This document shows, one piece after another, positions 38,484-54,294 of a stretch of 64,000 bases of DNA. Source of the stretch: a phage; sequence record OZ346222.1; one strand, 5' to 3'. The notes under the pieces were generated by a model that saw only the letters and a list, made by a program, of their open reading frames with translations, was not told the DNA's origin and did not search any database. Position 1 is the stretch's first letter. Each line of letters starts with the position of its first letter. Made by a program: the position numbers and the translations under genes.

Positions 38484-38753
38484 CATTGTGGCTTCATAGA
38501 GTAATCTATGTCGAATAACCTCTTTAACTGCGGGAAGCCTAAACCTTATGGCAAGGTAATCCGCAACGAAGCGCTCAAAAGAGCGAACGCTCAGAGGCCA
38601 TTCCGAAAGGAAGTAGACCAGCAAGTGCGGTCGAAATGGGAGGATTCCTGTGGTTGCTTATCATAGGAATATGAGATGGTCCGATCCTACGTGAAAACGT
38701 ATGGCTATGCACGTAATGGTGCGGGGTAGCTTAACGACCTACCTGAACTATTG
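38478..38753 (+). other. putative group I intron (about 276 nt, no ORF) interrupting the DNA polymerase gene at motif C
   Basis: Exon 1 ends in U (CAU His codon); intervening sequence ends in G; downstream frame resumes with GAT GAG (DE) to complete HDE; intron-internal GUGG about 10 nt in can pair with exon-terminal CCAU (P1 with U.G at splice site); boundaries +/- 2 nt. Confidence 0.5.
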
Positions 38754-39107
38754 GATGAGTACCAACTTCAAGTGCCTGACACACCGAAGTATAAGACTGT
38801 GTACACCTTCGACACAATTGAAGAACTGGAAGCATTTAAGGCAGAGCAGGAAGCCAAACTTCATGTGTTCGACGGTCATAAGTACAAAAAGGCACGCAAG
38901 GATGAGGACGGAAACGAAGTGGTTGACAGAGACGGAAACACGGTGTACGATCCTATCCTGAACGATGACGGAAAGCTTGAACTTATCTGGAGCCCTGTGG
39001 GTGAAATGGTGGTACATTGCTTCTGGCAAGCTTCTAAAATGATGGGAGTCCCGTTCCAGATCACAGGTGAATACTTGTGTGGTCGTAATTGGGGTGATTG
39101 TCACTAA
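38754..39107 (+). CDS. DNA polymerase, family A: exon 2 (motif C aspartate through C-terminus)
   Basis: Frame of track ORF 38751..39107 read from codon 2: DEYQLQV... ending ...GVPFQITGEYLCGRNWGDCH, resembling the Pol I C-terminus (...VPLLVEVGSGENWDQAH); no RBS or ATG of its own. Confidence 0.5.
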   Translation, partial: DEYQLQVPDTPKYKTVYTFDTIEELEAFKAEQEAKLHVFDGHKYKKARKDEDGNEVVDRDGNTVYDPILNDDGKLELIWSPVGEMVVHCFWQASKMMGVPFQITGEYLCGRNWGDCH

Positions 39108-39156
39108 TGTAAACTATCAACACATGGAAGTGTTGTTGAGCAAAGAGGAGACTTTT

Positions 39157-39441
39157 ATGGTAGTAGAACCAACAAAAACATTTACATCCATGACTATCCC
39201 TGTTATTATGCAGGTGGAGTGTGTTCAGGTATCTCAAGTGTGGCCTGGCACCAAAATCCCAACAGGGCCTGATTTCTTTCAGGTTGGGAAAGTGTACAAT
39301 GTCTGGAAGGCACCAGATTGTTACCCTTTCATTAAAGATGACCGTGGGATGCTGTGGTATCTTGGAAATGACTTGACACTGCACCTTGGGAATGCTATTA
39401 TTGCAGTATTCAGACTTAACAAGAAGGAGACCGATCAATGA
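39157..39441 (+). CDS. small hypothetical protein (small-protein family member)
   Basis: Start at ATG with AAAGAGGAG upstream; Gly/aromatic-rich. Confidence 0.45.
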   Translation: MVVEPTKTFTSMTIPVIMQVECVQVSQVWPGTKIPTGPDFFQVGKVYNVWKAPDCYPFIKDDRGMLWYLGNDLTLHLGNAIIAVFRLNKKETDQ

Positions 39442-39665
39442 CGACTTTGGTTAAAGCCACCTTTGTAGAAGAAAAGATGACAGACATGTCATTCTTTAAA
39501 GAAGGAAAGACCTACGAGGTTTATTACGATAAAGCTCGTGCAAACAAAATGATTAAAGACGAGGAAGGGGTTGACTGGTATATCTCTCACCTGGCAAACG
39601 GTGAGTATCATATCTACGGAACCACTTTGCTTGCCAAGTTTGTAGTTGTTGAAGAGGACCTATGA
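39438..39665 (+). CDS. small hypothetical protein (small-protein family member)
   Basis: 75 aa; RBS AAGGAGA; ATGA overlap with upstream gene. Confidence 0.5.
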   Translation: MTTLVKATFVEEKMTDMSFFKEGKTYEVYYDKARANKMIKDEEGVDWYISHLANGEYHIYGTTLLAKFVVVEEDL

Positions 39666-39856
39666 AAGTAAAGTATCTTGCTGAAGGTATGAATAGGTAT
39701 TTTACCCTTGGTGAAGAATATTGGCCCTTTACAAACAACGGCGATGTCTACGTGAAAGATAATTTCGGCACGCCGTGGTTTCTGCACTCTAATGGGCTGG
39801 GATACTCCATTTACTGCGGTGCAGTGAACAACACAACTCTTGCAGAGTTCGTTTAG
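39662..39856 (+). CDS. small hypothetical protein (small-protein family member)
   Basis: 64 aa; RBS GAAGAGGA; ATGA overlap. Confidence 0.5.
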   Translation: MKVKYLAEGMNRYFTLGEEYWPFTNNGDVYVKDNFGTPWFLHSNGLGYSIYCGAVNNTTLAEFV

Positions 39857-39866
39857 AGGAGGTAGG

Positions 39867-40238
39867 ATGTTAGTAAAAGGTACCCACACAGTCAAACAAC
39901 GTATTGAAGTTGAGATTGATGATTGTGAGCTGAAGCATATTTTACGGTCATGCTCCAACGTTTTGCTCCTTAGTATTCTTCAGGAGCGAGCGGAGAACGA
40001 GTTCTTAAATGCATTGGCAGGCCGTCCCGGTGACTTCTGTGTGCGTAAGCGTGGTGACAACAAGTCGTGGTTGTGGGAGATCGATGCCGACTGGGATTAC
40101 CACAAAAATGAGGGTATAGATGAGCCTATTCGTGAACTGACGGACAAAGAGATTCAGATGTACAATGAAGTTTGTCATTGGGCAACACGCCAACAAATTT
40201 ACCTAGACCCTGTGTGGCTGATTGAAAATAGTCGTTGA
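39867..40238 (+). CDS. hypothetical protein
   Basis: Start at ATG with AGAGGAGG upstream (track ORF from 39840). Confidence 0.5.
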   Translation: MLVKGTHTVKQRIEVEIDDCELKHILRSCSNVLLLSILQERAENEFLNALAGRPGDFCVRKRGDNKSWLWEIDADWDYHKNEGIDEPIRELTDKEIQMYNEVCHWATRQQIYLDPVWLIENSR

Positions 40239-40263
40239 CAAGAAGTAAGGTTAGATGTAAGAT
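40235..40263 (+). promoter_or_regulatory. sigma70-type promoter
   Basis: TTGACA-17 nt-TAAGAT about 50 nt upstream of the 40315 gene. Confidence 0.45.
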
Positions 40264-40314
40264 ACTCCTCACAAACAGAGTATTGATTGTTAAATAATTA
40301 AGGAGACCTCTAAG

Positions 40315-40569
40315 ATGAAAATCATGTTGAAACCAGAATGCGTTGCAAACGACCGAGCTTTTAAAGATTGCACACTTGGCGCTACTTATGAAGCAGAGTT
40401 TTGTGAGAACCCTTTGGTAAAAGCCCTTTTGGAAGAAGGGGCCCCTCTATCACAAGAAGAGCTTGATGAGCTGGAAAACTCAGCACAGTGCCTTACCTTT
40501 AAAGATGATGAAGGAGACTCTGTCTGGTGCACTGTTAACGAAGTAGTTTTTGTAAAAACTGAACATTAA
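40315..40569 (+). CDS. small hypothetical acidic protein
   Basis: 84 aa; RBS TAAGGAGA. Confidence 0.5.
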   Translation: MKIMLKPECVANDRAFKDCTLGATYEAEFCENPLVKALLEEGAPLSQEELDELENSAQCLTFKDDEGDSVWCTVNEVVFVKTEH

Positions 40570-40573
40570 TACT

Positions 40574-40602
40574 TGACAACAGCGATAGGACCTAATACAA
40601 TG
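40574..40602 (+). promoter_or_regulatory. sigma70-type promoter overlapping an inverted repeat
   Basis: TTGACA-17 nt-TACAAT; AGGACC...GGTCCT inverted repeat overlaps the -10 element. Confidence 0.45.
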
Positions 40603-40632
40603 GTCCTATCAAAACGAAAGGGGACCACAGCA

Positions 40633-40893
40633 ATGACCAAACAATATCAACGAATTAAAGCCAAGGTTAAGCCAGACTATCTAGAGAAGGACTCTGCTTT
40701 TCGGGACTGCACAGCTGACAAAGTTTACACAGGGGCCGTCCTGTTGAACGATAAACTTGAAGTAGATGTGCTGGGTAAAGAGGCCGTTATCGAGGATGAC
40801 AACGGTGACTGTGTTTTCTGCACCACACGAGAGCTAGAAGTCTTAGAATATTTCGGTGAAATCTTCAACTCCTTAGACGACGAGGAAGCGTGA
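40633..40893 (+). CDS. small hypothetical protein
   Basis: Start at ATG after AAAGGGGA (track ORF from 40573 would include the promoter). Confidence 0.5.
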   Translation: MTKQYQRIKAKVKPDYLEKDSAFRDCTADKVYTGAVLLNDKLEVDVLGKEAVIEDDNGDCVFCTTRELEVLEYFGEIFNSLDDEEA

Positions 40894-41282
40894 TGAAAAA
40901 TATTTGGGATATCGATATCTTTGAAGCCTCTAAGCTTGACGGTGCTGATGGAGTGATTATGGTGTCTGATGGCAAGGCAACACTAACTTCCGGAGATATC
41001 ATCTATGCCTTGGACGAGCTGGCGCTTCTGAAATCTACCGGTAACACTTTGGAGGAGCGTCTTCAAGGATTCGCTTTCAAAGAAGGTACAAATACAGCCA
41101 TGATGTGCACCACACGGACAGTCCAGGTTGGTAACGGTGTCTATATGATTATTGCTGTGTGTCCTAAATTCAGCAACGTCAACAAAGATGATGCTGACGC
41201 GGTCAACGATGTGGTTGTTCTCTTCGTGGGTGACGCTATGGCAGATCTGATGAATGCAGGAGAAGCAGCAAATGAAGACTGA
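40890..41282 (+). CDS. hypothetical protein
   Basis: 130 aa; ATGA overlap with upstream gene. Confidence 0.5.
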   Translation: MMKNIWDIDIFEASKLDGADGVIMVSDGKATLTSGDIIYALDELALLKSTGNTLEERLQGFAFKEGTNTAMMCTTRTVQVGNGVYMIIAVCPKFSNVNKDDADAVNDVVVLFVGDAMADLMNAGEAANED

Positions 41283-41574
41283 AAACATCACCCCAGCAGG
41301 GTTCTTAAAAGTATACCGTGAACTGCTATATACTACAGAGGACAGTGTTCTAGAGTATCCAGAATATCTTTTGCTGTATAAGTATCTGCAGGAGGCTGGT
41401 GAAAATCTGCCAGTTAGTGCAGAAGGTGGTCCAAACTGGATATACAGCGCATGGAGAAAGGTTGACATTCTCCCAAACCCAGGTAAAGATATGGTAGTTT
41501 GGCAGCTTATCAACAACATCGGGATTCCAATCTTTGATGAAGCTGTTAAAATCTATTTTGAACTTGACGATTAA
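41272..41574 (+). CDS. hypothetical protein
   Basis: Start at ATG with AGGAGAAG upstream. Confidence 0.5.
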   Translation: MKTENITPAGFLKVYRELLYTTEDSVLEYPEYLLLYKYLQEAGENLPVSAEGGPNWIYSAWRKVDILPNPGKDMVVWQLINNIGIPIFDEAVKIYFELDD

Positions 41575-41591
41575 TATCAGGAGACCTTAAG

Positions 41592-41837
41592 ATGACTGAA
41601 GCAGTTGCTCGCGCAGGACAGAAAGTACGTTGTGTTGAAGTAGGTTTTGGTGGCAAAGGGTGTCAAAACTTGACTCAAGGCAAGGAATATGCTGTTATCT
41701 CTGGTGGTGGCGACGAAAGTATTGTGTTCGAGGGTCACATCCTGGATGCTGAAAACTTTGAAATCTTTGACGACGATGGGGATCCGATCACCTGCCTGCT
41801 GGACGGGAATTGGGGAACTTTCGAAGTGATTGGCTAA
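41592..41837 (+). CDS. small hypothetical protein
   Basis: 81 aa; RBS AGGAGA; Gly-rich. Confidence 0.5.
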   Translation: MTEAVARAGQKVRCVEVGFGGKGCQNLTQGKEYAVISGGGDESIVFEGHILDAENFEIFDDDGDPITCLLDGNWGTFEVIG

Positions 41838-41920
41838 CAAATACCTATTGTAATTTACAGAAGGGGATGCTAAAATAGTGTCTCCTTCTATGTTGTTCAA
41901 ATAAAATCGGAGATTCCATA

Positions 41921-42289
41921 ATGGAACAAATGAACGATCAAGAGTCGGTTGCGATGAACGAGCAAGAACAACCTCAAGAATTTTTCTTAGGGTTAAGTAA
42001 AGATCAAGTGTCTCTTTTGCTAGTGCTTTCTTCTTTCATGGGAAGACTTCAGGAGCTCACACAACAACCGGAGGCTGAACAATTATTTCAGGCTCTGCGT
42101 GAAGAAGAAAAATATCGTCGTTTGGACTATGCCTTAGGTTGGGTAGCTCAACAACGAGATATGCTGATGGCCCTCTCTGGGACCACAAGTTTTGCAATGG
42201 GCCTGTTGGCTCAAGTTCAGGACAAATTAATTCAAGCAGGGTTTGCACACACGGCAAACACTAACGAAGAACAAGGAGACAAAGAATGA
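41921..42289 (+). CDS. hypothetical protein
   Basis: 122 aa; RBS GGAG; possible TTGTAA-17-TAAAAT promoter about 40 nt upstream. Confidence 0.5.
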   Translation: MEQMNDQESVAMNEQEQPQEFFLGLSKDQVSLLLVLSSFMGRLQELTQQPEAEQLFQALREEEKYRRLDYALGWVAQQRDMLMALSGTTSFAMGLLAQVQDKLIQAGFAHTANTNEEQGDKE

Positions 42290-43500
42290 GCGTTATTCAA
42301 CAATTCGCTAACCCGATGAATCCGCGTGAAACTGTTTTACTGGCTCACGGCATGATTAAACGCGTCAGCATCAAGCCTATCAAAGGTGCTGATCCTACAA
42401 CAGGTATTAAAACCACTGTGTGGCAAGGTAAGAAAATTGAATCCAGCCACACCATCTCTTTACTGATTTCTGAACTGGATTCCTCTGATAACCTACTTCA
42501 AGGTGGTGAAGAAGTTTGGATCAGTATGGGCGATAAGCTGCTTAAACCGGGTCATCAAGACTCTGTCTCTGTTAAAATTGATGACAAGTGGGAAACCGTA
42601 ACGCCAGGATGGATCGTAAATATTCCTTTGAAGGCAAACGAGCATAACGGTAAGACCTATTACAAAGGCTCACTGGCTAAGATGGTTAAGCTGGGTGTAG
42701 GAGAGGCTCCAGCAGCGACTCAGCAGCAAAAACAGCAACAAGGTGTACAATCACAAGGCCAGAAGCAGAATGCCAATCAGGACGTTTTACGCATCTATGG
42801 CGATGTGACTCAGATTGTTGGCAACGTGGTTACTGTCAATGACCACAAGATTGGCGAAGGTGCTATGGTTGTCACCGATGAGCAGCTTAAAGATCTGGTG
42901 GTAGGTGGTCGTGTTGCAGCCATTGTTGACAAAGACACCGGAAACATTATCAGTGGTTTCAAAGCCTACCCCCCTAAGGCAGAGAACGGCACTCAAGGCT
43001 CCGGTGGCAAGCGTAAATCCTCTTACGACCCTATCGGTGTGGAAACGGGGCATAGCATCAATGCGTTGCAGATCATCCTGGATCGCGGGTTTAAGGTAGA
43101 CGACCCACTGGGCGTGGCTAAAACACTGCACGTAGTCACCATTGAGCTTAAGAAAGAGTATGCTCAGGCCACCAACCGAACTGAAGATGAAGTAGGTGCC
43201 AGTGTCGGTAATGCGGTGTTGAACGCTTGTCGCCGTATTGACAAGAAAACGAAAGTTGATGATTTTGCAGCGGCAATTACTGCAGAAGCAAAAGATGTCT
43301 TGACTAATCTGGCTGAGCCGTTGTACGATTGGATCAAGAACGGTGCTGGGTCAACTGACCATCAAGAACCTCAGGCTACCAAACAGGAAGCAGCTCCACA
43401 GCAAAACACTGTAGACGCTCCTCCTGTAAATGATGAGGAAGATGACCCAATGGATCAGAATCCAGCACAGTACTCCTTTGATGATGACATCCCTTTTTAA
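42286..43500 (+). CDS. ssb: single-stranded DNA-binding protein
   Basis: 404 aa; Gln/Gly-rich flexible central linker; C-terminus ...QYSFDDDIPF identical in its last six residues to the conserved acidic tip of E. coli SSB (DDDIPF); RBS AAGGAGA. Confidence 0.6.
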   Translation: MSVIQQFANPMNPRETVLLAHGMIKRVSIKPIKGADPTTGIKTTVWQGKKIESSHTISLLISELDSSDNLLQGGEEVWISMGDKLLKPGHQDSVSVKIDDKWETVTPGWIVNIPLKANEHNGKTYYKGSLAKMVKLGVGEAPAATQQQKQQQGVQSQGQKQNANQDVLRIYGDVTQIVGNVVTVNDHKIGEGAMVVTDEQLKDLVVGGRVAAIVDKDTGNIISGFKAYPPKAENGTQGSGGKRKSSYDPIGVETGHSINALQIILDRGFKVDDPLGVAKTLHVVTIELKKEYAQATNRTEDEVGASVGNAVLNACRRIDKKTKVDDFAAAITAEAKDVLTNLAEPLYDWIKNGAGSTDHQEPQATKQEAAPQQNTVDAPPVNDEEDDPMDQNPAQYSFDDDIPF

Positions 43501-43510
43501 CAATTAGTTA

Positions 43511-43545
43511 ACATAGCCCTGCCCGAAAGGGTGGGGCATTTTTAT
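43511..43545 (+). terminator. rho-independent terminator (copy 2 of duplicated terminator sequence)
   Basis: GCCCTGCCC-GAAA-GGGTGGGGC hairpin plus ATTTTTAT; same hairpin as at about 33117. Confidence 0.55.
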
Positions 43546-43562
43546 ATAAGGAGATCTGAAAA

Positions 43563-43979
43563 ATGACATTAGAAGATATCATTGTTAAACCTGAGAACTA
43601 TGACCAATACAACCTGTCAACTCAATCTGTAGACCTTGGATGCGCCACGGTCAGTGCGTGGCCGGTTAACGGAAAAGAGCTAGATAAATGCTTAGAAGCT
43701 CACATGTCTATTAACAAGTTTCTGGATGAAAATACTCACTGGCTTGAGGGTGCAGGAGTATATGCTTCATGGTTGGAGAGTATGGGATTCGACTACCAAT
43801 CTGAAGAAGGGTGGTGGAGCTATTTAGCTATCTGTCCAGAGACGCTACAATGCTTCATGAAATACTCTGAAGATTTAGAGTACCGGGCGGTGGTTGATAG
43901 TGCTATTGCCCGTTATAGCCGTAAACCTTTTTCCCACGACATTAAAACTGTGGAAGAGTTTGTTGAAGTTTTCTGTTGA
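43563..43979 (+). CDS. hypothetical protein
   Basis: 138 aa; RBS TAAGGAGA. Confidence 0.5.
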   Translation: MTLEDIIVKPENYDQYNLSTQSVDLGCATVSAWPVNGKELDKCLEAHMSINKFLDENTHWLEGAGVYASWLESMGFDYQSEEGWWSYLAICPETLQCFMKYSEDLEYRAVVDSAIARYSRKPFSHDIKTVEEFVEVFC

Positions 43980-44075
43980 CACAGGTTGAAAGGTGTGCAA
44001 TTATAACTTCATATGACTGGAGGACGTGATGAACGAAGAAAACTGGGATGTATAACTAACAGGAGGCCACTGCCC

Positions 44076-44273
44076 ATGATTTATCGAATCCGTGTAAGAG
44101 AAGATGCACCAGGCTGTTACTTTGACTGGCGTGGGTGGTGGTTTCTCCACCCAATGGATGGACTCACAGATAGAATGCTGGATGCTGCCCTTTATACAGA
44201 TACCGACATAGAGTATAATCTCTATCTGAAGGACGGTATAGATAACGGCCTGTTTGAAGCAATTCCTGTGTAA
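44076..44273 (+). CDS. small hypothetical protein
   Basis: Start at ATG after AGGAGG (track ORF from 44013); Trp/Arg-rich. Confidence 0.45.
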   Translation: MIYRIRVREDAPGCYFDWRGWWFLHPMDGLTDRMLDAALYTDTDIEYNLYLKDGIDNGLFEAIPV

Positions 44274-44341
44274 GAGACTGTGATAGCTATGTTTTATGAT
44301 CTTCCTGTAGCGCCACCACCTGTTGAACCCGGAGAACTAAG

Positions 44342-44767
44342 ATGATCTATGAAATGCCAAAACTGATTCGTGACGATGCCCAAAACGCTCACACCATTAT
44401 TATGGGCAAACGCATGGATATTATTTGTCATAAAGATTTCTGGGAAGGAAGTTACTTCACAGAGTATTTTGGTAAACTGGATAATGGTCTGCTGATCCAG
44501 TTCTACACCGATGCGGAAAACAACATTCCCTGGGAGTTCGAAACTGAAGATATTCATAAACTTTTCACCTTCCTCGATATTAAGGTTAAGGCCAAGTTTG
44601 AAGAGGGTGAGTGCGACGATTGTGGATTTTATGAGGTAACAGATTTCTATCTTCCAAGTGGTAAGAACCTTTACTATGAAAGCCACTTCGGTAACTCAAA
44701 TATGCCACAGTGCTGGACTGAGTTTTTTGAAATTGTGGAAGAGGAGCTGGCATATCGTGATTATTGA
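44342..44767 (+). CDS. hypothetical protein
   Basis: 141 aa; RBS GGAG. Confidence 0.5.
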   Translation: MIYEMPKLIRDDAQNAHTIIMGKRMDIICHKDFWEGSYFTEYFGKLDNGLLIQFYTDAENNIPWEFETEDIHKLFTFLDIKVKAKFEEGECDDCGFYEVTDFYLPSGKNLYYESHFGNSNMPQCWTEFFEIVEEELAYRDY

Positions 44768-45215
44768 TACTGTAGAGGGAGATTTAATCTCCCTTTTTAA
44801 GAGCGGTGCTGGTCACCTGATCCACGGTTGTAACTGCTTCCACACAATGGGTAAGGGTGTAGCAAAACAGATTGCCCGTGAGTTCCCTCAAGCATTGGAA
44901 GCTGATAAAATGACTATGCACGGTTGCCTAAGTAAACTGGGCGCGTTCTCCCGCTGGGAGCACTTATCTCCGAGAGGTATTGTCTACGGAATAAATCTGT
45001 ATACTCAGTTCTACCCAGGGCCTAATGCTGAATATTTCTCAATACTGAAAGGCTTTGAGCGAGTCAATGAAGTATTTGAGGGGTCGATTTTACCATTCTA
45101 CATCCCTAAGATCGGGTGCGGCATAGGTGGTTTGAAGTGGGAACATGTAGAGGACATTATTAACCTTGCCACTTTTGATATAGATATTATCGTGGTGGAG
45201 TACAAAGAGTGTTGA
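44757..45215 (+). CDS. macro-domain protein (ADP-ribose binding / ADP-ribosyl hydrolase-like)
   Basis: GTG start about 10 nt after GAGGAG (track ORF from 44658 overlaps upstream gene); motifs GHLIHGCNCFHTMGKGVAKQI and IPKIGCGIGGL resemble the macro-domain phosphate-binding loops (aligned by eye). Confidence 0.5.
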   Translation: MIIDTVEGDLISLFKSGAGHLIHGCNCFHTMGKGVAKQIAREFPQALEADKMTMHGCLSKLGAFSRWEHLSPRGIVYGINLYTQFYPGPNAEYFSILKGFERVNEVFEGSILPFYIPKIGCGIGGLKWEHVEDIINLATFDIDIIVVEYKEC

Positions 45216-45240
45216 CAGCTATATTTTAAGATGGTATAGT
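45212..45240 (+). promoter_or_regulatory. sigma70-type promoter
   Basis: TTGACA-17 nt-TATAGT upstream of the 45270 gene. Confidence 0.5.
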
Positions 45241-45269
45241 CGCCACAACGATTAAGACAGAGGAGCACT

Positions 45270-45464
45270 ATGGAGACTAAAATCTTAATTCTAGCTGTGA
45301 TAGATACAACAGAAGGAGCCATGTTTGAATCTGCAGGAGGGTATTTCTACCTGCCCTATGGAAAAAGAACTTCCGAGCCGAGTAAAGATTCAATCCTTAA
45401 AGTGTTCCCGTGTGCTTTCTGGCTGGAGATCTTGGTAGAAGATTGCAGAGGACTAGGGAGATAA
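45270..45464 (+). CDS. small hypothetical protein
   Basis: 64 aa; RBS AGAGGAG. Confidence 0.5.
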   Translation: METKILILAVIDTTEGAMFESAGGYFYLPYGKRTSEPSKDSILKVFPCAFWLEILVEDCRGLGR

Positions 45465-45466
45465 TT

Positions 45467-45661
45467 ATGAGAAACAAGAAAGAGCTTTACTCTGGTGAGT
45501 GGATAAACGATCAACAGGTAGGAGAGGTAACCTGCTTCCGGTGCTTTACTAGGTACAATCTTAAAACTGCACCAAAAAGTGTTCCAAAGACTGACGGTTA
45601 TTACATAAAAGAACCTCATTGCCCAAAATGCAAATGCCGATTATACTGGAGTAACCTGTAA
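45467..45661 (+). CDS. small zinc-ribbon protein
   Basis: Start at ATG after AGGGAG; CFRCFTRY ... CPKCKC Cys pairs. Confidence 0.45.
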   Translation: MRNKKELYSGEWINDQQVGEVTCFRCFTRYNLKTAPKSVPKTDGYYIKEPHCPKCKCRLYWSNL

Positions 45662-45665
45662 AAGA

Positions 45666-45693
45666 TTGACATCTGAAAACTGCGGTGTATAAT
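45666..45693 (+). promoter_or_regulatory. near-consensus sigma70 promoter
   Basis: TTGACA-16 nt-TATAAT upstream of the 45725 gene. Confidence 0.55.
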
Positions 45694-45724
45694 ATAAACA
45701 TAAACTAGCAGAGAGTGATATATT

Positions 45725-45916
45725 ATGGTAATTTTTAATCGAGACGGTATCATAGTTAGACAGCACCCATTCCTTGAATACTATCAAATTGAGCAATGGT
45801 GCTACGGGGATTGCAGTCACTCCTATGGGCAAAGTTGGGGATATCGCACAGTTTTTGAATCAACAGATCTTGATAAGGTAAGACAGAAAGTTTTAGAACT
45901 TATTAACAACAAGTGA
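45725..45916 (+). CDS. small hypothetical protein
   Basis: 63-aa ORF downstream of consensus promoter. Confidence 0.45.
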   Translation: MVIFNRDGIIVRQHPFLEYYQIEQWCYGDCSHSYGQSWGYRTVFESTDLDKVRQKVLELINNK

Positions 45917-45923
45917 GTATGAT

Positions 45924-46259
45924 ATGGTAACATTAGAAAGACGTAAAGCTATCGCCGCCACACTGGCAGACATCTTTTGGGAGTGCAATTTAAAAGATAC
46001 CCGATATTGTGGCGCATCTGTAGATGCATTATTCCCACGGCCCACTATTGTTGCAATGGGAAACCTGTCAAACGTGGTGTATGGAGCATGGGACAAAGAA
46101 GGTGGATTTTATATCTGGCAACCTGACTACGGGACCTGGAAAGAGGTAAGGGGTGCGGATGACTTTGGGCCTGCAGTTGCCAAAACGATGGATGGCTGGA
46201 AAATCTATGTCGGTAACGACATGAAGCTGAAAGGCGAGATTGTTTACTGGTTACCTTAA
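45924..46259 (+). CDS. hypothetical protein
   Basis: 111-aa ORF. Confidence 0.5.
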   Translation: MVTLERRKAIAATLADIFWECNLKDTRYCGASVDALFPRPTIVAMGNLSNVVYGAWDKEGGFYIWQPDYGTWKEVRGADDFGPAVAKTMDGWKIYVGNDMKLKGEIVYWLP

Positions 46260-46280
46260 TAAAACGCAGGAGATAAAGTT

Positions 46281-46526
46281 ATGAACAAAGGGTGGACATT
46301 TGTAGACGGCGTTAAAAACATGCCTCTAGGAAAGTATATTGTAGCCATGGCAGATGAGAATGGCAAGGTGGATTTCGGAGTTTGCGAGGTTGTTCTTGCA
46401 GGATCTGGTGACTATGCTCACAAAACTGGGATAATTAACGGTCATTTCTACTTTGATTACAACCCTGTTGTGGCGTATATGGCTATGCCAGAGTTCGAGC
46501 TCCCAAAGGAGGGTGCGGATGTTTAA
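46281..46526 (+). CDS. small hypothetical protein
   Basis: 81 aa; RBS AGGAGA. Confidence 0.5.
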   Translation: MNKGWTFVDGVKNMPLGKYIVAMADENGKVDFGVCEVVLAGSGDYAHKTGIINGHFYFDYNPVVAYMAMPEFELPKEGADV

Positions 46527-46716
46527 GCTTAAATCTGCATGGAACATCGCTGTGGGGGACGAGATCCGCATCCCAGGTGGAAAGACCATTATGAAGATAT
46601 CTCGTATCGAGTACGAAGGTGATCGTGTATTTCATATCTTTGCAGAAGATGGTCGAGAAATTTATATACAGGCAGGCTCTCACATCTATATTCGTAAGAA
46701 AGGGGACGACAAATGA
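46519..46716 (+). CDS. small hypothetical protein
   Basis: Start at ATG with AAGGAGGG upstream; overlaps upstream gene end by 8 nt. Confidence 0.45.
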   Translation: MFKLKSAWNIAVGDEIRIPGGKTIMKISRIEYEGDRVFHIFAEDGREIYIQAGSHIYIRKKGDDK

Positions 46717-47042
46717 CAGAGATCATCATTTCAACTGCAGGGTATGTGTTCCTGACAATCATTGCACTGACCATTCTGGTGGTGGTATATGGAATTGTTA
46801 TTCTCCCTATTCTTGAGACAATTAGTTTGTGTCGGTGTTGGAGAAAGGCTTACGGTCCACAGCCGTGGAAGGACTGGCCCCACCTGGTGCACATAGCGTT
46901 CTCTTATGCTTATGATCACGCCAGCAGTGCATGCATAACCGGGTATCACGCCCACAACTGGAGCTGGGAAGGGTTGAGGAAATGGAATGTTACAAAGACC
47001 ATACCTCTGCGCATGTACAAACCTAAAAACAAAGACAGCTGA
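46713..47042 (+). CDS. membrane protein
   Basis: 109 aa; ATGA overlap; N-terminal hydrophobic span (YVFLTIIALTILVVVYGIVILPIL). Confidence 0.5.
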   Translation: MTEIIISTAGYVFLTIIALTILVVVYGIVILPILETISLCRCWRKAYGPQPWKDWPHLVHIAFSYAYDHASSACITGYHAHNWSWEGLRKWNVTKTIPLRMYKPKNKDS

Positions 47043-47355
47043 TACTTGAAAATCCCTGGCATATCAAGTGTAAGGAGGATTTCTAAAATGGATTTCCTCC
47101 TTTTGATATTTCACCGGGCCAGATATTTTAAAATTCTTAGAAAATCAGAAAATGGATCGAAAACTAAAATGGATTTTTCAAGACAGGCACGATAAGATGT
47201 GCTGCTCATTCTATCGTTCGCACCGTACTTTAAGTCACTATTCCAGATTTTTCCGCACATACTCTCACCCTTCTACCAGAACTTTCCCAGCTTACCTCTG
47301 ACCTTTTATAACAATAAGTCCATTATTATCAGAAAGTTTCGGCACATCTCTTTCG

Positions 47356-47550
47356 GTACTCGATCTGTTTTTCATTTCAAAGACCTGATTTTCTGAAAAT
47401 TTTTCTCGATAAATTTCTTAGTACTCGATCTGTTTTTCATTTCAAAGACCTGATTTTCTGAAAATTTTTCTCGATAAATTTCTTAGTACTCGATCTGTTT
47501 TTCGTTTTCTGAATCGGATTTTCTGGAAATCGTTCCAGCTCTCGACCTGA
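47356..47550. repeat. tandem direct repeat, 65-bp unit, about 3 copies (third degenerate)
   Basis: Unit GTACTCGATCTGTTTTTCATTTCAAAGACCTGATTTTCTGAAAATTTTTCTCGATAAATTTCTTA starts at about 47356, 47421 and 47486 in an ORF-poor AT-rich region; AAATGGAT and GATTTTCTG sub-motifs recur on both sides. Confidence 0.7.
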
Positions 47551-47744
47551 AATTTTTGGGGACGAAATCGATTTTTCGTTTTCAGAAATGGATTTTTAAA
47601 ATTTCTATATGGGAATATTTTATGGGATACTGTTTTATAGGAAATTGTTACGGAGGGTAATTAGCATGCTAATTAAATTTATTAAATGCGAGGAGTTCTC
47701 ATTTAGAATTTTGAATGATAATCATTCTCGTTTGCAGAATAACG

Positions 47745-47767
47745 GGCAGGCCCGGTGATTGTCTCCC
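47745..47767. repeat. conserved 23-nt GC-rich motif, copy A (GGCAGGCCCGGTGATTGTCTCCC)
   Basis: Near-identical copy in inverted orientation at about 57523..57547; related variant CCGGTGGTTGTCTCCCCC at about 47887. Confidence 0.55.
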
Positions 47768-48124
47768 GGCCCCTACTGCCCCGGCTTGTTATTATAGTAT
47801 CACACAGGACAAAGAAAGCAAGGATTTTTTGCATAAATTTTTAAATGATAATGATAACCGTTCTCATTTTATGCAGCGCCCATCCCCGGTGGTTGTCTCC
47901 CCCGTCACCGGTGCCTGCCGTCCTTTCGATAGGTATATCGTGCCACCTGGCGGGGCCGCTGTCAACACTTTTCAAAAAATTTTTCTAACCTGATGCGCTA
48001 ACCGCTGCAACCTGGCGGGGTCAGCCTGGCAGGACCTAACTGACCGGGTAGGAGAGAATGAAGGCTTGTAAACCTGGTGGGCCTATGCTACAGGATAGGT
48101 AACAATTGAAGAGGAGGTACAAAA

Positions 48125-48292
48125 ATGAAAGGTAATATGATCCCCCTAGAAAATGTAGCTATTAATGACGCTGAGGCTATCGCCCTGGTTGAAAAGGCTA
48201 TGGCGGGAGCGTTGGAACATAAAGAAGAGTACGAAAAATGGTGGTTAACCTGGCGGGGGCGGCAGGTGGATTCTATCATAAAAATAATTTAA
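48125..48292 (+). CDS. small hypothetical protein (about 55 aa)
   Basis: ATG 5 nt after strong RBS GAAGAGGAGG; below track cutoff; coordinates hand-counted. Confidence 0.4.
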   Translation: MKGNMIPLENVAINDAEAIALVEKAMAGALEHKEEYEKWWLTWRGRQVDSIIKII

Positions 48293-48301
48293 AATAGTCG
48301 T

Positions 48302-48329
48302 TGACAACAAGGTTAATCATGGTATTATT
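48302..48329 (+). promoter_or_regulatory. sigma70-type promoter
   Basis: TTGACA-16 nt-TATTAT upstream of the 48379 gene. Confidence 0.5.
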
Positions 48330-48378
48330 ACCCTACAAGGTGAACAACACCGCACTAACCAGTAAAGAGGATAAATTT

Positions 48379-48576
48379 ATGAACGCATACGGGATCAAAG
48401 TACGTCGCAACACTCGCCAGGTGGTCACCAATCAAGTGATTTGCCGGGTGGATGTAACCATCAACAACGGGCAAGGCCTTTATAAATTTCGTCGCGGTCA
48501 TAGCTATACCCTGCAACAGCTTAATCGTTGCGCCCTGACAAAAGGTCAGATCAACCATTGGTTTAATAAAAAATAA
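48379..48576 (+). CDS. small basic protein
   Basis: Start at ATG after AAAGAGGA (track ORF from 48301 would cover the promoter); Arg/Lys-rich. Confidence 0.5.
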   Translation: MNAYGIKVRRNTRQVVTNQVICRVDVTINNGQGLYKFRRGHSYTLQQLNRCALTKGQINHWFNKK

Positions 48577-48640
48577 GTATTGACATACAGTCCGACACCA
48601 AATACACTAAAAGCACAAAAGACACTAAGAGGATAAAATC

Positions 48641-49039
48641 ATGAAAACCACTACCTTTAATTTTGATAATGCAGACTTTTCTTTTTCTGATGTCAAGAAC
48701 TGCCGCCGTGATCGTGGATTTTACAAGGCTTATAATCTGGTGGGCCTGGACGATGACAATAATTTGCACGAAGTAGCTGAGATCCGGTATTATGCCGCCG
48801 CCAGCGGTAACACTAACTACTGCGTTTTTTGGATACACGACAACAAGAACAATAAGTACGGTTATACTGGTGGCAAGGCGAGCGGTCACGGTTACGATAA
48901 AGCTAATGCAGCACTTGAGAGCGCATTAAATGCTATGGGGATCACTGCCAACGGCTGGATCTATGAAGAAGAGTTTTTGTCGGCACTTGCTGACCACCTG
49001 GGCTATAAAAAGCACATTGTAACATGCGCCCACGAATAA
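48641..49039 (+). CDS. hypothetical protein
   Basis: 132 aa; RBS AAGAGGA; TTGACA-17-TACACT promoter about 60 nt upstream. Confidence 0.55.
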   Translation: MKTTTFNFDNADFSFSDVKNCRRDRGFYKAYNLVGLDDDNNLHEVAEIRYYAAASGNTNYCVFWIHDNKNNKYGYTGGKASGHGYDKANAALESALNAMGITANGWIYEEEFLSALADHLGYKKHIVTCAHE

Positions 49040-49121
49040 AAATTGTTGACACGCTGCAAAATTCAAGTAAACTAGTCACAAAAGGCGGGAATGTTTCCCG
49101 CCAACACAAAGGAAAAAGATC

Positions 49122-49526
49122 ATGAATAAGAACGTACGCCGCATCATGAACGAACTGGCAAACGATGAAAAAATTATTGACATGCATTTGATCAACATTT
49201 GCCGCCGTTGTGTAACATACAACAACCGCGCCGCAAAAGCGCGTGAGATGAACGCAAAAGGCACCTTAAAGCCATTCCAGGTGGTGGTAAAGGCCATTAA
49301 AGATGTAACTAATACGGCAAACCAGGTACAGGGGAACACCAACGAGAGTACCAATATTGATCCGGCTTACATCATGAAACGGATCCGGACCTGCAAGAAC
49401 AAAGAGCAAGTGTATAATGTCATAGACTGGTTGGATTCTATGGGCGATGTGGTGTACAATAGATTCTCGGCAGCTATTGAGATCCAGCTTGACAGGTTAG
49501 ACGGTAAAGTACTTAAAACTTACTAA
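49122..49526 (+). CDS. hypothetical protein
   Basis: 134 aa; promoter TTGACA...TAAACT, leader hairpin GGCGGGAA-TGT-TTCCCGCC, CA-rich spacer, RBS. Confidence 0.55.
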   Translation: MNKNVRRIMNELANDEKIIDMHLINICRRCVTYNNRAAKAREMNAKGTLKPFQVVVKAIKDVTNTANQVQGNTNESTNIDPAYIMKRIRTCKNKEQVYNVIDWLDSMGDVVYNRFSAAIEIQLDRLDGKVLKTY

Positions 49527-49537
49527 ATTTATTTTTA

Positions 49538-49561
49538 GATGGCCTTGACTCCAGGGCCATC
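49538..49561. promoter_or_regulatory. dyad-symmetric element GATGGCC-N10-GGCCATC with TTGACT in the spacer (copy 1 of 3)
   Basis: Part of a roughly 44-nt block TTATTTTTAGATGGCCTTGACTCCAGGGCCATCAATAAAGTAAA repeated at about 50159 and 53897, each directly after a gene stop. Confidence 0.5.
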
Positions 49562-49726
49562 AATAAAGTAAATTAATCTCAGCTAAGCGAAAAAGGGGGC
49601 TTTAAGATGAGCACTACACGCCAATACACAAAGGTAACTATTATCGCCTGCGTTGTCGGTTACATCCTGGCGCAAATGTTAATGAGTAGCGCTAACAGTT
49701 TTGCAAAATTTTTCTTAAATTTTTAA

Positions 49727-49754
49727 TTGACAAGCTAACTTAGATTGATATACT
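49727..49754 (+). promoter_or_regulatory. sigma70-type promoter
   Basis: TTGACA-16 nt-TATACT, followed by leader hairpin GGGAA-AAC-TTCCC and CA-rich spacer. Confidence 0.5.
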
Positions 49755-49805
49755 TAAACACGTAAACGGGAAAACTTCCCAGAACACACAAAAGGAGAAA
49801 ACACC

Positions 49806-50147
49806 ATGACTACTATGGCCGCCGCAGAAAAAGCTATTCAGATCGCCGCACTGAAAAAACAGATCGCAGACCTTGAGAACAAGATCGATAACTTTGAAAT
49901 CGACGAGGACAAGTACGACGAAAACTATGATGAATGGTTAGACGAGATCTACGGCGAAATTATGATCGGAAACATTTCTTTTCTTCCGTCGCGTATCCTC
50001 AAGGAGCTAGATCCTATCGCTTACCGCTGCGGATTTAGCGACTACATCGACAGCCTGGATATTGAGGACGATGAAGAATACCAGGAATTACAGACAGAGT
50101 TAGAAGAAGCAAAAGAAGAGCTTGCAGAACTGGAAGAAAACGAGTAA
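49806..50147 (+). CDS. highly acidic coiled-coil protein
   Basis: 113 aa, strongly Asp/Glu-rich; RBS AAAGGAGAAA. Confidence 0.55.
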   Translation: MTTMAAAEKAIQIAALKKQIADLENKIDNFEIDEDKYDENYDEWLDEIYGEIMIGNISFLPSRILKELDPIAYRCGFSDYIDSLDIEDDEEYQELQTELEEAKEELAELEENE

Positions 50148-50158
50148 GATTATTTTTA

Positions 50159-50182
50159 GATGGCCTTGACTCCAGGGCCATC
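50159..50182. promoter_or_regulatory. dyad-symmetric element GATGGCC-N10-GGCCATC (copy 2 of 3)
   Basis: Identical to copy 1 including flanks. Confidence 0.5.
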
Positions 50183-50236
50183 AATAAAGTAAACTTTATA
50201 CTGTTAACACTGAACTAATGCATAGGAGTTAAAACC

Positions 50237-50482
50237 ATGGCAGCACTAATCACCAAATATTATGCCCCTACCAACACCAAAAGCGCCCGTATCATGGTAA
50301 AAGGCTTCGGACGTAAAAAGGTGTACACCTGGGATTATGCCTTAGACACGGAAGACAACTACACCAACGCGATGACCGATTTTATTAATGATCTGAACAC
50401 GCGGATCTTGACAAATTATAAAATTACCGATATTGCCTATATAGGGGAAGGCGGGATCTGTTTTGTCGGTATCGTCAAATAA
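50237..50482 (+). CDS. small hypothetical protein
   Basis: 81 aa; RBS TAGGAG. Confidence 0.5.
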   Translation: MAALITKYYAPTNTKSARIMVKGFGRKKVYTWDYALDTEDNYTNAMTDFINDLNTRILTNYKITDIAYIGEGGICFVGIVK

Positions 50483-50557
50483 GCTGTTTTTTCGGTGGTC
50501 CTGGTAGCAGGGCCATCTATAAAGATAGTTTATCAATACAATGAAAGGAGAAAGTAC

Positions 50558-50911
50558 ATGATCAGCGGGGCAAGTTTTATTATTGGCGCTATTGCTACGG
50601 CTTTAATTGTAAACAAGATCCAATCTAAAAACGAAAAAGATAGCAACGCCCTTACAGAATACCCGTTTTGGGTATTCAACGACAATGAAGACTATATTAT
50701 CAAGTACAAGAATGAGAAGGGCGACCAGGTAACACCGCGACCGATCCCGGCTTACAAGATGCAAGAAACACTATACCGCCTAAAGGCTGGAGGCGCAAAA
50801 ATCGTAGACTTTTGGGGATACGATCACACAGATCAGGAAGTTATAAAGCGCCGTATCCGGGCTATTCAGGCCAATATTGAAGTTAGCAAGGGGGGAATAT
50901 ATGAAGATTAA
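50558..50911 (+). CDS. membrane-anchored protein
   Basis: Start at ATG after AAAGGAGAAAG; N-terminal hydrophobic span (ASFIIGAIATALIV). Confidence 0.5.
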   Translation: MISGASFIIGAIATALIVNKIQSKNEKDSNALTEYPFWVFNDNEDYIIKYKNEKGDQVTPRPIPAYKMQETLYRLKAGGAKIVDFWGYDHTDQEVIKRRIRAIQANIEVSKGGIYED

Positions 50912-51098
50912 TTTTGAGAAGATTGTAAAGCGATCTCATGCTTCCGAAGAGCTGCCGGAACGCCGCCAGCGCAACAATAAACTGAATAAGCCAAAAAGAT
51001 TTGGGAAGATCTGGCGGAATCATTATGATCGCAAATTACCGGGCCTGCTTTTGGAACGTGAACGACAGGCGGAACGATACCGCCACAAAGGCAAATAA
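50901..51098 (+). CDS. small basic protein
   Basis: Start at internal ATG of track ORF 50877..51098 after a G-rich RBS; Arg/Lys-rich; followed by terminator. Confidence 0.45.
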   Translation: MKINFEKIVKRSHASEELPERRQRNNKLNKPKRFGKIWRNHYDRKLPGLLLERERQAERYRHKGK

Positions 51099-51106
51099 CA
51101 ACCAAC

Positions 51107-51137
51107 GCCCCGCCATTGTGCGGGGCTTTTTATTTCT
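51107..51137 (+). terminator. rho-independent terminator
   Basis: GCCCCGC-CATTGT-GCGGGGC hairpin followed by TTTTTATTTC. Confidence 0.6.
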
Positions 51138-51279
51138 ATCCTACGAATAGCGCCCCTGGTTGGCCCTGTAAGCGCCAAAAAGGCCCCACCTATGCAATCG
51201 CCCACCTTTAACCTGAAAACATCGCTTAGGGCCGTTTTATGGCGTTAAAAATATCATTGACAGTGATTTTATTTAAAGC

Positions 51280-51308
51280 TTGACATCTTAAACAGGTTAG
51301 CTATACTA
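51280..51308 (+). promoter_or_regulatory. sigma70-type promoter with AT-rich upstream element
   Basis: TTGACA-16 nt-TATACT with A/T-rich upstream sequence and a second TTGACA about 22 nt upstream. Confidence 0.5.
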
Positions 51309-51341
51309 ACCACATCAAAGAGAGAGAAAGGAGTAAACGCC

Positions 51342-51602
51342 ATGCGTAAATTAAAAAATTTTGATAAAGTTGATGTTGTCCTGAATAATTTTTACTACTG
51401 CAACAACAAGGCCATTTGGTGGCGTGATAGTTCCACCGATAAAGTCAAGGCGCGCTTTCTCCAGGGGCACTGGCAAGGCCGCCCAGTGATTAAAATCATG
51501 GGGCAATTGGTAGCGTTTAAAAATTGCCGCCGTGTTGATGACGTTGAAGAGATCTTGAATATTTTACGCCACAATAATTTAAAAAATAGTGTTGACAAGT
51601 AA
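51342..51602 (+). CDS. hypothetical protein
   Basis: 86 aa; RBS AAAGGAG. Confidence 0.55.
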   Translation: MRKLKNFDKVDVVLNNFYYCNNKAIWWRDSSTDKVKARFLQGHWQGRPVIKIMGQLVAFKNCRRVDDVEEILNILRHNNLKNSVDK

Positions 51603-51620
51603 ATCTCAATAAGTATACTT
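51592..51620 (+). promoter_or_regulatory. sigma70-type promoter
   Basis: TTGACA-16 nt-TATACT, then hairpin GGCGGGAA-GTT-TTCCCGCC, CA-rich spacer and RBS. Confidence 0.5.
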
Positions 51621-51676
51621 AAGCACACAGGCGGGAAGTTTTCCCGCCACTAACAAAGAAAATAGGAGAAAATATC

Positions 51677-52300
51677 ATGACCACCGTTAACATTACCACA
51701 GGTTGCAATTTATCTTTCGACGTGCTGACCGACGAACAAAAAGAAAAAGCTGTTGAAATGGTCCGCGAAAGAGAAGAACACAGCGGGGATAACTTTTTTG
51801 CAGAAAGTGTAATTGAATACTATAAAGAATATGTTTTTCCAGAGTACGGGCTTGAAGATACCAAGGTACAGTGGTCCGGCTTTTGGTGTCAAGGCGACGG
51901 CGCATCAATTAGCGCTGAAAATGTAAACTTAGAAAAATTCTTGCGTAAGGTTAAAGCGCTTACAAAATTTCGCTCAATTAGACACTTGTTCGGCACAATG
52001 CACGATGGCGAACTATCAGCCAGCGTTGAACGTATCCCGTTTAGCCATTATCATCACGAAAACACAATAGGCGGGTGCATCGATACCAACTGGCTAGACC
52101 TGACCACCAAGCAAGAGGATAAAATTGAAGAGCTGGAAGAGCTGATCACCGAGACGGTACGGGAGCTATCCCGCAAGGTTTACGTAGACCTGGAGCAGGC
52201 CTATCTTGAACAATTCACTACCGAAAACCTGATCGGCCTTATCGAGGCCAATGATTGGCGGTTTGATGTGGATGAGTATGGCGAGATGACTTTTTCATAA
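51677..52300 (+). CDS. hypothetical protein
   Basis: 207 aa; RBS TAGGAGAAAA. Confidence 0.55.
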   Translation: MTTVNITTGCNLSFDVLTDEQKEKAVEMVREREEHSGDNFFAESVIEYYKEYVFPEYGLEDTKVQWSGFWCQGDGASISAENVNLEKFLRKVKALTKFRSIRHLFGTMHDGELSASVERIPFSHYHHENTIGGCIDTNWLDLTTKQEDKIEELEELITETVRELSRKVYVDLEQAYLEQFTTENLIGLIEANDWRFDVDEYGEMTFS

Positions 52301-52389
52301 ATAAAGTGTTGCAATAACCTAAAAACCTGCTATATTAAAACTCAAGGGGCAAGACGTTTGCCCCCACACAAAACAAAGAGGAAAACATC

Positions 52390-52770: not shown

Positions 52771-52780
52771 TCAGGTAACA

Positions 52781-52810
52781 GGCGGCATATTTGCCGCCTT
52801 ATTGTTAAAC
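52781..52810 (+). terminator. rho-independent terminator
   Basis: GGCGGCA-TATT-TGCCGCC hairpin followed by TTATTGTT. Confidence 0.5.
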
Positions 52811-52834
52811 AGAGTTGCAAAAGAGGTACATAGA

Positions 52835-53429: not shown

Positions 53430-53545
53430 CAACCAAGGATAAGCCCCGTACCGATAAGGCGCGCCGGGTTATGGTATGGCTTGAGATCATCGCCCTTGAA
53501 ATATTGCTAGGCGTAGGGATGTACTTTATCGCTGTAAGTAACTAA

Positions 53546-53884: not shown

Positions 53885-53896
53885 AATTTATTTTTA

Positions 53897-54277: not shown

Positions 54278-54294
54278 TTTCAGCAGGCGATTTT

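Follow-up and report, generated by a model that had tools for sequence, protein, structure and literature searches.

The window, that is, the whole stretch of 64,000 nt analysed here, belongs to an rV5-like Vequintavirus, a phage infecting E. coli. Downstream of the DNA polymerase gene, its genome carries an extended array of small genes that share one orientation and have no assigned function. Within this array, an ORF with a GTG start and a TGA stop is located at 44757-45215 on the plus strand and translates to a protein of 152 aa; gene and product are referred to below as macro gene and macro protein. The initial annotation had picked out this GTG-start ORF on the basis of two glycine-rich motifs, and both are present in the translation, at residues 19-39 and 116-126, respectively. 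The following features describe the locus:

43516-43537, plus strand: terminator-like hairpin with a 9-bp stem (7 GC pairs) and a T-run, forming the upstream boundary of the gene cluster; a terminator is annotated at the equivalent position in phage HdK5
44342-44767, plus strand: upstream ORF of 141 aa, unknown function, PHROG 8157 (E = 1.6e-82), no Pfam match; overlaps the start of the macro gene by 11 nt
44741-44746, plus strand: Shine-Dalgarno-like sequence GAGGAG, 10 nt 5′ of the GTG of the macro gene, read from the sequence
44757-45215, plus strand: CDS of the macro gene, encoding a single-domain macrodomain protein homologous to T4 Tk.4/AdfM; evidence from the ORF, Pfam Macro, PHROG 335, identity to Tk.4, AlphaFold2 (AF2)/Foldseek and purifying selection
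44811-44873, plus strand: loop 1 region GHLIHGCNCFHTMGKGVAKQI (aa 19-39), with G24, N26, M31, G34 and A36 invariant in an alignment of 44 homologues
45006-45008, plus strand: CAG codon of Q84 within the motif NLYTQF, placed by phmmer, profile and MAFFT alignments
45102-45134, plus strand: loop 2, the diphosphate-binding glycine-rich sequence IPKIGCGIGGL (aa 116-126), with P117, I119, G120 and G122 invariant in the alignments
45212-45240, plus strand: sigma-70-like promoter, TTGACA-17-TATAGT with an extended -10 TG; its -35 hexamer overlaps the stop codon of the macro gene

Several lines of evidence place the start codon at position 44757. The sequence GAGGAG lies 10 nt upstream of it, the N-terminus MIIDTVEGDL aligns residue by residue to the first amino acids of T4 Tk.4 (MIVKYIKGDI), and three annotated Vequintavirus genomes (HdK5, BP9, and DrSchubert) call the identical 459-nt CDS with a GTG start. 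Furthermore, the 11-nt overlap with the stop of the preceding ORF is typical of a coupled arrangement. A longer mechanical ORF beginning with the GTG at 44658 was not taken as the gene start, and 44757 was favoured. Pairwise dN/dS values among Vequintavirus orthologues amount to 0.12-0.23, and the macro gene is therefore under purifying selection. Since the plus frame shows this selection together with strong homology, two ORFs of 45 and 74 aa on the opposite strand of the gene were set aside.

The upstream ORF is annotated in the same arrangement with the macro gene in HdK5, BP9, and DrSchubert, and both genes are probably co-transcribed and translationally coupled. The promoter overlapping the macro stop codon is predicted to serve the next small gene and to mark the region as one transcribed by host RNA polymerase, that is, early. 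Of the 12 near-consensus plus-strand sigma-70 promoters in the window, 10 are found at 39-58 kb, around the macro gene. Such a promoter-rich array fits early transcription by the host enzyme, a timing suggested by the promoter sequences, and it also fits the context of “early small genes” in which the initial annotation had placed the ORF. Seven neighbours of the macro gene fall into PHROGs of unknown function. By Pfam, no ADP-ribose-related partner (ART, DarT, NADAR, Nudix, or sirtuin) was detected in ten neighbouring or larger ORFs, and neither these scanned neighbours nor the named neighbour products of the related genomes HdK5 and BP9 include RNA-repair (KptA/2H), sirtuin, or NAD-salvage genes. 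Phage ARTs were also looked for in the annotation of HdK5, the entries of which are mostly “hypothetical protein” and thus uninformative.

Elsewhere in the window, the DNA polymerase gene is split by an ORF-less group I intron of 276 bp (38478-38753; Rfam RF00028, 64.7 bits), the exon junction of which was mapped by comparison with the uninterrupted DNA polymerase gene of HdK5. A non-coding stretch of approximately 2 kb with nested inverted repeats is located at about 59.2-61.2 kb between divergently transcribed gene arrays. By its position, this stretch appears to be the counterpart of a transposon-intolerant region of Vequintavirus Bas54.

The 3-kb region around the macro gene matches 120 phage records, 116 of them covering no less than 80% of it, and nearly all of these 120 records are rV5-like Vequintavirus genomes with 90-95% identity. 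Several of the matching genomes already label the gene as “macro domain protein”, “phosphatase”, or “O-acetyl-ADP-ribose deacetylase”. The first of these labels is carried by near-identical public genomes and had been missed in the initial annotation.

The identification of the gene product as a macrodomain is nearly certain. A profile search, one of the checks suggested for the original motif reading, yielded Pfam Macro (PF01661) at 32 bits, above its gathering cutoff of 22 (E = 1.3e-7), with residues 22-135 spanning profile positions 1-118 of 118, and the match to PHROG 335 reached an E-value of 1e-60. Taken together with the dN/dS values, these scores put the motif match far beyond chance. 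Among solved structures, the best single-sequence match in a phmmer search was the macrodomain of M. tuberculosis DarG (5m3i, E = 4e-7), followed in this order by yeast Poa1p, BT1257, SCO6735, Taq DarG, and TARG1. A profile built from 44 homologues matched Mtb DarG, SCO6735, TARG1, BT1257, Taq DarG, and Poa1p with E-values of 1e-17 to 1e-13 (8e-17 for 5m3i). The AF2 model, calculated on the same 44-homologue alignment with a mean pLDDT of 95 and a pTM of 0.90, contains the three-layer alpha/beta/alpha macro fold. Foldseek comparison of this model, which follows the second suggested check, gave TARG1 and the macrodomains of Taq and Mtb DarG as the best matches (probability 1.00, TM 0.75-0.79). 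In total, 158 PDB chains matched at E≤1e-3, and the best 50 of these 158 are macrodomains and designed hydrolases. In BFVD, the best match was Tk.4 from Acinetobacter phage 133. The earlier reading of the two glycine-rich motifs as the ADP-ribose-binding loops of a macrodomain is thus upheld by profile, by comparison with sequences of solved structures, and by fold.

The residues of the active site could be assigned consistently, as their columns agree in three alignments (phmmer, profile, and MAFFT), the last comprising the macro protein together with T4 Tk.4, PhiKZ gp104, Mtb DarG, SCO6735, TARG1, and BT1257. The glycine-rich loops consist of M31-G32-K33-G34 and G120-C-G122-I-G124-G125; G34, G120, and G122 are invariant in the 44 homologues, and conservation of G32 and G125 reaches at least 90%. 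N26 (codon 44832-44834) aligns with N22 of DarG and N27 of SCO6735, and this active-site Asn has a functional role in both DarG (PMC13309987) and SCO6735 (PMC9411070). At the position of the catalytic lysine (K80 in DarG, K84 in TARG1, and K78 in the PTK motif of PhiKZ gp104), the macro protein carries Q84, a replacement that the initial annotation had overlooked. The same Gln is found in T4 Tk.4, in SCO6735 (Q85), and in BT1257, as well as in 78 of the 80 best bacterial homologues, and G124 stands at the position of D125 in TARG1. Across the 44 aligned homologues, both N26 and Q84 are invariant. SCO6735 detaches ADP-ribose from thymidine, rescues E. coli from the effect of DarT, and loses its activity upon the exchanges Q85A, Q85E, and N27S; a water-mediated mechanism has been proposed in which the Gln positions the distal ribose (PMC9411070). 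Because of the invariant Asn/Gln pair and the purifying selection, the macro protein is likely to be a catalytically active hydrolase, as far as its residue pattern can tell.

The macro protein belongs to the T4 Tk.4/AdfM family (PHROG 335). In a BLASTP comparison, it shows 41% identity and 65% positives to T4 Tk.4 over 153 columns and the full length (E = 7e-43). Homologues were detected by tblastn in 2,742 of 50,697 phage records, including the tk.4 genes of T-even phages. A gene with 70% identity is present in Krischvirus W115, a member of the Straboviridae, where it occupies the syntenic slot vs/tk.4/tk. This copy bridges the rV5-type and the T4-type proteins and suggests exchange between both phage groups.

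The function of this family has been addressed genetically in T4. When a T4 transposon library was grown on a host with DarTG2, tk.4 was the single significant match of the HIDEN-SEQ analysis, and a clean tk.4 knockout rendered T4 sensitive to DarTG2, so that the otherwise non-essential gene was renamed adfM (anti-DarT factor Macrodomain); the authors propose that AdfM takes ADP-ribose off the DNA enzymatically (10.1101/2025.11.20.689424). The support for Tk.4 in this preprint is purely genetic (10.1101/2025.11.20.689424). An anti-DarTG2 factor in T4 had also been predicted in the earlier paper on AdfN. Independently, the name AdfM was given to gp104 of phage PhiKZ, which strips ADP-ribose attached by DarT2 from DNA in vitro (PMC13309987; Cell Reports 2026). 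The TARG1-like class of macrodomains is known to reverse both T-ADPr and U-ADPr. Among the PADLOC and NCBIfam models, the macro protein matches DarG as the sole model, with 51.8 bits (PADLOC) and 47.1 bits (NCBIfam); T4 Tk.4 scores lower in both cases.

By analogy to its T4 homologue, the macro gene would act in counter-defence against DarTG2. We assign this reading a probability of about 0.7, and no higher because it rests on a homologue of 41% identity that was tested genetically in a preprint. Removal of ADP-ribose “as DarG does for DarT”, which the initial annotation had listed among the activities of macrodomain enzymes, has thereby become the best-supported function, with the homology to T4 Tk.4/AdfM and the exclusive match to DarG models as its basis. 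Several observations weigh against it. At 41% identity, the substrate specificity could differ from that of Tk.4, and the catalytic Lys that defines the chemistry of DarG and TARG1 is absent from the macro protein. In addition, the protein has neither the longer mobile loop nor an equivalent of Val25 (G24 in the macro protein), features to which the high DNA activity of SCO6735 has been tied (PMC9411070). In the literature searched, no tests of Vequintavirinae on DarTG2 and no reports of DarTG2 resistance in rV5-like phages were found. It is a prediction of the anti-DarTG2 reading that rV5-like phages resist DarTG2 owing to the macro gene.

On the anti-DarTG2 reading, the course of events would be as follows. 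A stand-alone, catalytically competent macrodomain ADP-ribosylglycohydrolase would be made from the host-RNAP-transcribed region of small genes, presumably early in infection. Infection would release the toxin DarT2, which would modify single-stranded phage DNA by ADP-ribosylating the N3 of thymine in TNTC motifs and thus block replication. The two glycine-rich loops of the phage enzyme would hold the ADP-ribose, and cleavage of the bond between ribose and thymine N3 would restore the DNA, set ADP-ribose free, and allow replication to resume. The chemistry is expected to resemble that of SCO6735 rather than that of DarG, with N26 positioning Q84, Q84 holding the distal ribose, and the attack being carried out by water instead of a catalytic lysine.

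Different substrates have to be considered as well. Instead of or beyond DNA modified by DarT2, the macro protein might act on Glu/Asp-linked ADP-ribose on proteins or uracil-linked ADP-ribose on RNA, thereby erasing marks of other host ART defences or toxins or tuning the marks set by the phage's own ARTs. Protein-linked ADP-ribose is indeed also hydrolysed by SCO6735 and TARG1 (PMC9411070), uracil-ADPr on RNA is reversed by SCO6735, TARG1, and DarG, and the bacterial homologues stand alone, without a DarT partner. We nevertheless regard this alternative as unlikely, as DarTG2 provided the only phenotype of tk.4 found in T4 (10.1101/2025.11.20.689424) and tk.4 is dispensable on the laboratory host although T4 expresses ARTs of its own. 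The mRNA ADP-ribosyltransferase CmdTAC also still acts against T4 in the presence of tk.4, which means that at least adenine-linked ADP-ribose on RNA is not reversed; an ART-like Pfam domain, moreover, was absent from the ten ORFs scanned, which comprise neighbours and larger ORFs.

Small soluble ADP-ribose derivatives are even less probable as the main substrate, be it in the form of ADP-ribose-1''-phosphate phosphatase activity, of O-acetyl-ADP-ribose deacetylation, or of an attack on NAD-derived immune signals such as the cyclic ADPR isomers of Thoeris. The names given to homologues, “phosphatase” (PHROG 335 and T4 NP_049723), “O-acetyl-ADP-ribose deacetylase”, and the historical “A1pp phosphatase”, point in this direction but are transferred annotations and not tests. 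Yeast Poa1p does occur among the structural matches, yet with a TM of 0.70-0.74 and an rmsd of 4.3-4.8 it fits less closely than TARG1 and DarG (TM 0.75-0.79, rmsd 2.5-3.3). The contextual argument of Iyer et al. would likewise favour small molecules, but it finds no support in any pathway neighbour, KptA/2H, sirtuin, and NAD-salvage genes being missing among the scanned ORFs and named products, and the only genetic experiment performed on the family implicates DarTG2 (10.1101/2025.11.20.689424). Of the options offered in the initial annotation, Thoeris or other NAD-derived signals and ADP-ribose-1''-phosphate thus gained no evidence in their favour from the analysis. A mainly non-catalytic role, either as a binder or sponge for ADP-ribose or by directly binding and blocking DarT2, seems very improbable. 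It would account for the missing canonical Lys, and even with the catalytically dead SCO6735 variant Q85A, DarT is inhibited in vitro through interaction (PMC9411070); the Asn/Gln pair, however, is essential for hydrolysis by SCO6735 and invariant across the family, which argues for conserved catalysis, and the C-terminal DarT-binding domain of DarG is absent from the macro protein.

In search of a conserved partner gene, the surroundings of the best 80 bacterial homologues were surveyed by clustering about 900 neighbouring ORFs. These homologues are chromosomally encoded, stand-alone proteins of approximately 150 aa that lack the C-terminal DarT-binding domain, and they have no conserved neighbour: the survey revealed merely genus-level synteny with housekeeping genes and no DarT-like cluster. 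Consequently, the ancestral role of the family need not be related to DarT. As T4 and rV5-type proteins carry Gln where PhiKZ gp104 carries Lys, the name AdfM covers two distinct macrodomain lineages. Neither of the two AdfM papers (10.1101/2025.11.20.689424 and PMC13309987) mentions this difference or cites the other. A more far-reaching but rather doubtful idea is that AdfM of the T4 Tk.4/rV5 type represents a Gln-type lineage which arose from stand-alone bacterial macrodomains and not from DarG, which differs mechanistically from the PhiKZ protein, and which accepts a range of substrates as broad as that of SCO6735 (thymine-ADPr in DNA, uracil-ADPr in RNA, and Glu/Asp-ADPr in proteins). If this were true, the protein would counter immunity based on ADP-ribosylation in general, instead of serving as an antidote specific to DarTG2, and it would be encoded by a small early gene that about 5% of the sequenced phage records contain and that Vequintavirinae and Krischvirus have exchanged.

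Two points were known before: public rV5-like genomes carry the macrodomain annotation, and the T4 homologue has been shown to act in counter-defence. New are the Gln-type active site and the relationship between Vequintavirus and Krischvirus, both of them modest additions; apart from the exchange of Lys for Gln and the extension to Vequintavirinae, the finding is confirmatory. The extension carries the anti-DarTG2 factor AdfM from T-even phages to rV5-like Vequintavirinae, which are used in phage therapy and in the biocontrol of E. coli O157. The Gln in place of Lys implies that the two published AdfM proteins have different active-site chemistries, the common phage type resembling SCO6735. 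It also identifies N26 and Q84 as targets for mutation and makes a wider range of substrates conceivable.

Among known systems, T4 Tk.4 is closest to the macro protein. Both are single-domain proteins of approximately 150 aa with the motifs HGCNCFHTMG, NLYTQF-PGPN, and P-[KR]-IG-x-GIG and with Gln at the Lys position, and both are encoded among small non-structural genes, each gene overlapping the preceding one. They differ in that the macro gene belongs to Vequintavirinae and not to Straboviridae, has neither vs nor tk as neighbours, and starts with GTG, and in that 59% of the residues are different. SCO6735 (PDB 5E3B) and BT1257 from Bacteroides (2FG1/2AFC) are, like the macro protein, stand-alone Gln-type members of the TARG1/ALC1-like class. 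The likeness to SCO6735 comprises the Asn and Gln pair (N26/Q84 versus N27/Q85), the H-x-C-N context, and K33/K34 in the first loop. Sequence identity to SCO6735 is about 26%, however, and the macro protein has G24 in place of Val25 and lacks K89. The mobile loop following the Gln is roughly 6 residues longer in SCO6735 and BT1257 and corresponds to a 6-column gap in the macro protein and T4 Tk.4; an elongated mobile loop (exceeding that of DarG and TARG1 by about 5 aa) and Val/Ile at the Val25 position have been described as specific to SCO6735 (PMC9411070). SCO6735 is, moreover, a cellular, DNA-damage-inducible gene of Streptomyces coelicolor and not a viral one.

With the DarG2 macrodomain (Taq 5M31/5M3E and Mtb 5M3I), the macro protein shares the fold (TM about 0.76), the Asn (N22 in DarG), and both glycine-rich loops, whereas the catalytic Lys, the C-terminal DarT-binding domain, and an adjacent darT are missing. 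By analogy, the substrate predicted for the macro protein, thymine-ADPr in ssDNA, and its presumed opponent DarT2 would be the same as those of DarG2 and PhiKZ gp104. In the DarG equivalog NF048014, with a cutoff of 250 bits, the macro protein scores 47.1 and PhiKZ gp104 138 bits, and the match of the macro protein spans model positions 3-143 of 338; the PADLOC match to DarG covers positions 4-141 of 329. The macro protein may thus work like DarG, but it is neither DarG nor a truncated DarG. PhiKZ gp104 is of the Lys type and DarG-like, and its BLASTP identity to the macro protein is 24% (E = 2e-5). Human TARG1 (C6orf130; PDB 4J5R/4J5S), the top Foldseek match (E = 1.5e-9, TM 0.78-0.85), belongs to the same macrodomain class, but its dyad K84/D125 is replaced by Q84/G124 in the macro protein, and TARG1 carries Ser at the position of N26.

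Of the 12 near-consensus sigma-70 promoters (at least 11 of 12 matching positions) that the window carries on its plus strand, 10 lie in the array of small plus-strand genes (39,000-58,500) that contains the macro gene. Three features of this array are located close to the macro gene:

44342-44767, plus strand: ORF of 141 aa, PHROG 8157, no Pfam match
45212-45240, plus strand: near-consensus sigma-70 promoter, its -35 hexamer overlapping the macro gene stop codon
45666-45693, plus strand: perfect sigma-70 promoter (TTGACA-16-TATAAT)

In all Vequintavirus genomes examined, the 141-aa ORF and the start of the macro gene overlap by 11 nt. The product of this ORF could act as a functional partner of the macro protein, since AdfN of T4 requires a further phage cofactor; no support for such a role was found.

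Upstream of this region, the DNA polymerase gene is split by an intron:

38478-38753, plus strand: group I intron (Rfam RF00028) of 276 bp, without an ORF

The Rfam match (38468-38703) reaches 64.7 bits, above the gathering threshold of 50. The last base of exon 1 (...IIYYH) is 38477, and exon 2 (DEYQL...) resumes at 38754; the flanks are 100% and 99% identical, respectively, to the uninterrupted polymerase of phage HdK5. In a megablast search with 38300-39600, intron included, only 58 of 132 matching records showed a query coverage of at least 80%, which suggests that about half of the relatives possess the intron. The polymerase is annotated as two pieces in the rV5 record.

Phage MaxTheCat (MZ501094) matches this polymerase-intron region at 100% identity, whereas the 3-kb macro region (43500-46500) reaches at best 95.2% identity to any record; the window appears to be mosaic. 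Within the macro protein, differences from most Vequintavirus orthologues are clustered at residues 47-55 (LEADKMTMHG here versus LSADKETRYG).

Sixteen GenBank records titled “Campylobacter phage” (host C. jejuni, approximately 128-138 kb) show 94-98% identity to the E. coli rV5-like sequence of the window in these two regions. The host labels of these entries look doubtful.

Between the plus-strand small-gene array and a minus-strand array, a stretch of about 2 kb is devoid of ORFs of 60 aa or more and contains nested inverted repeats:

approximately 59,240-61,230: stretch without ORFs of at least 60 aa
59433-59453 and 59667-59687: inverted-repeat arms
59511-59528 and 59645-59662: perfect inverted repeat, 18-nt arms
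59611-59650: hairpin within the nested repeats
59478 and 59706: repeated 20-mer

Judging from its location between arrays of divergent orientation, it appears to correspond to the intergenic region of about 2 kb in Vequintavirus Bas54 from which HIDEN-SEQ yielded no transposon insertions. It could harbor a replication origin, a hub of divergent early promoters or a non-coding RNA.

Macro genes of three other phages were compared:

T4 locus L003, 4923-5390: tk.4, Gln-type, 30 bits on the DarG model
PhiKZ locus L005, 17518-18006: gp104, a DarG-like protein of the Lys-type with a DarG model score of 138 bits
Escherichia phage W115 (Krischvirus, Straboviridae) locus L006, 3001-3456: macro gene in the syntenic vs/tk.4/tk slot

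The name AdfM was assigned independently by two studies from 2025-2026 to proteins of different macrodomain lineages, namely those of T4 and PhiKZ (10.1101/2025.11.20.689424; PMC13309987); neither paper cites the other or remarks on the Lys/Gln-type difference. The W115 protein, encoded in the slot occupied by tk.4, is 70% identical to the Vequintavirus protein, in contrast to only 41% for T4 Tk.4, and this sequence comparison points to an exchange of the macro gene between unrelated groups of E. coli myoviruses.
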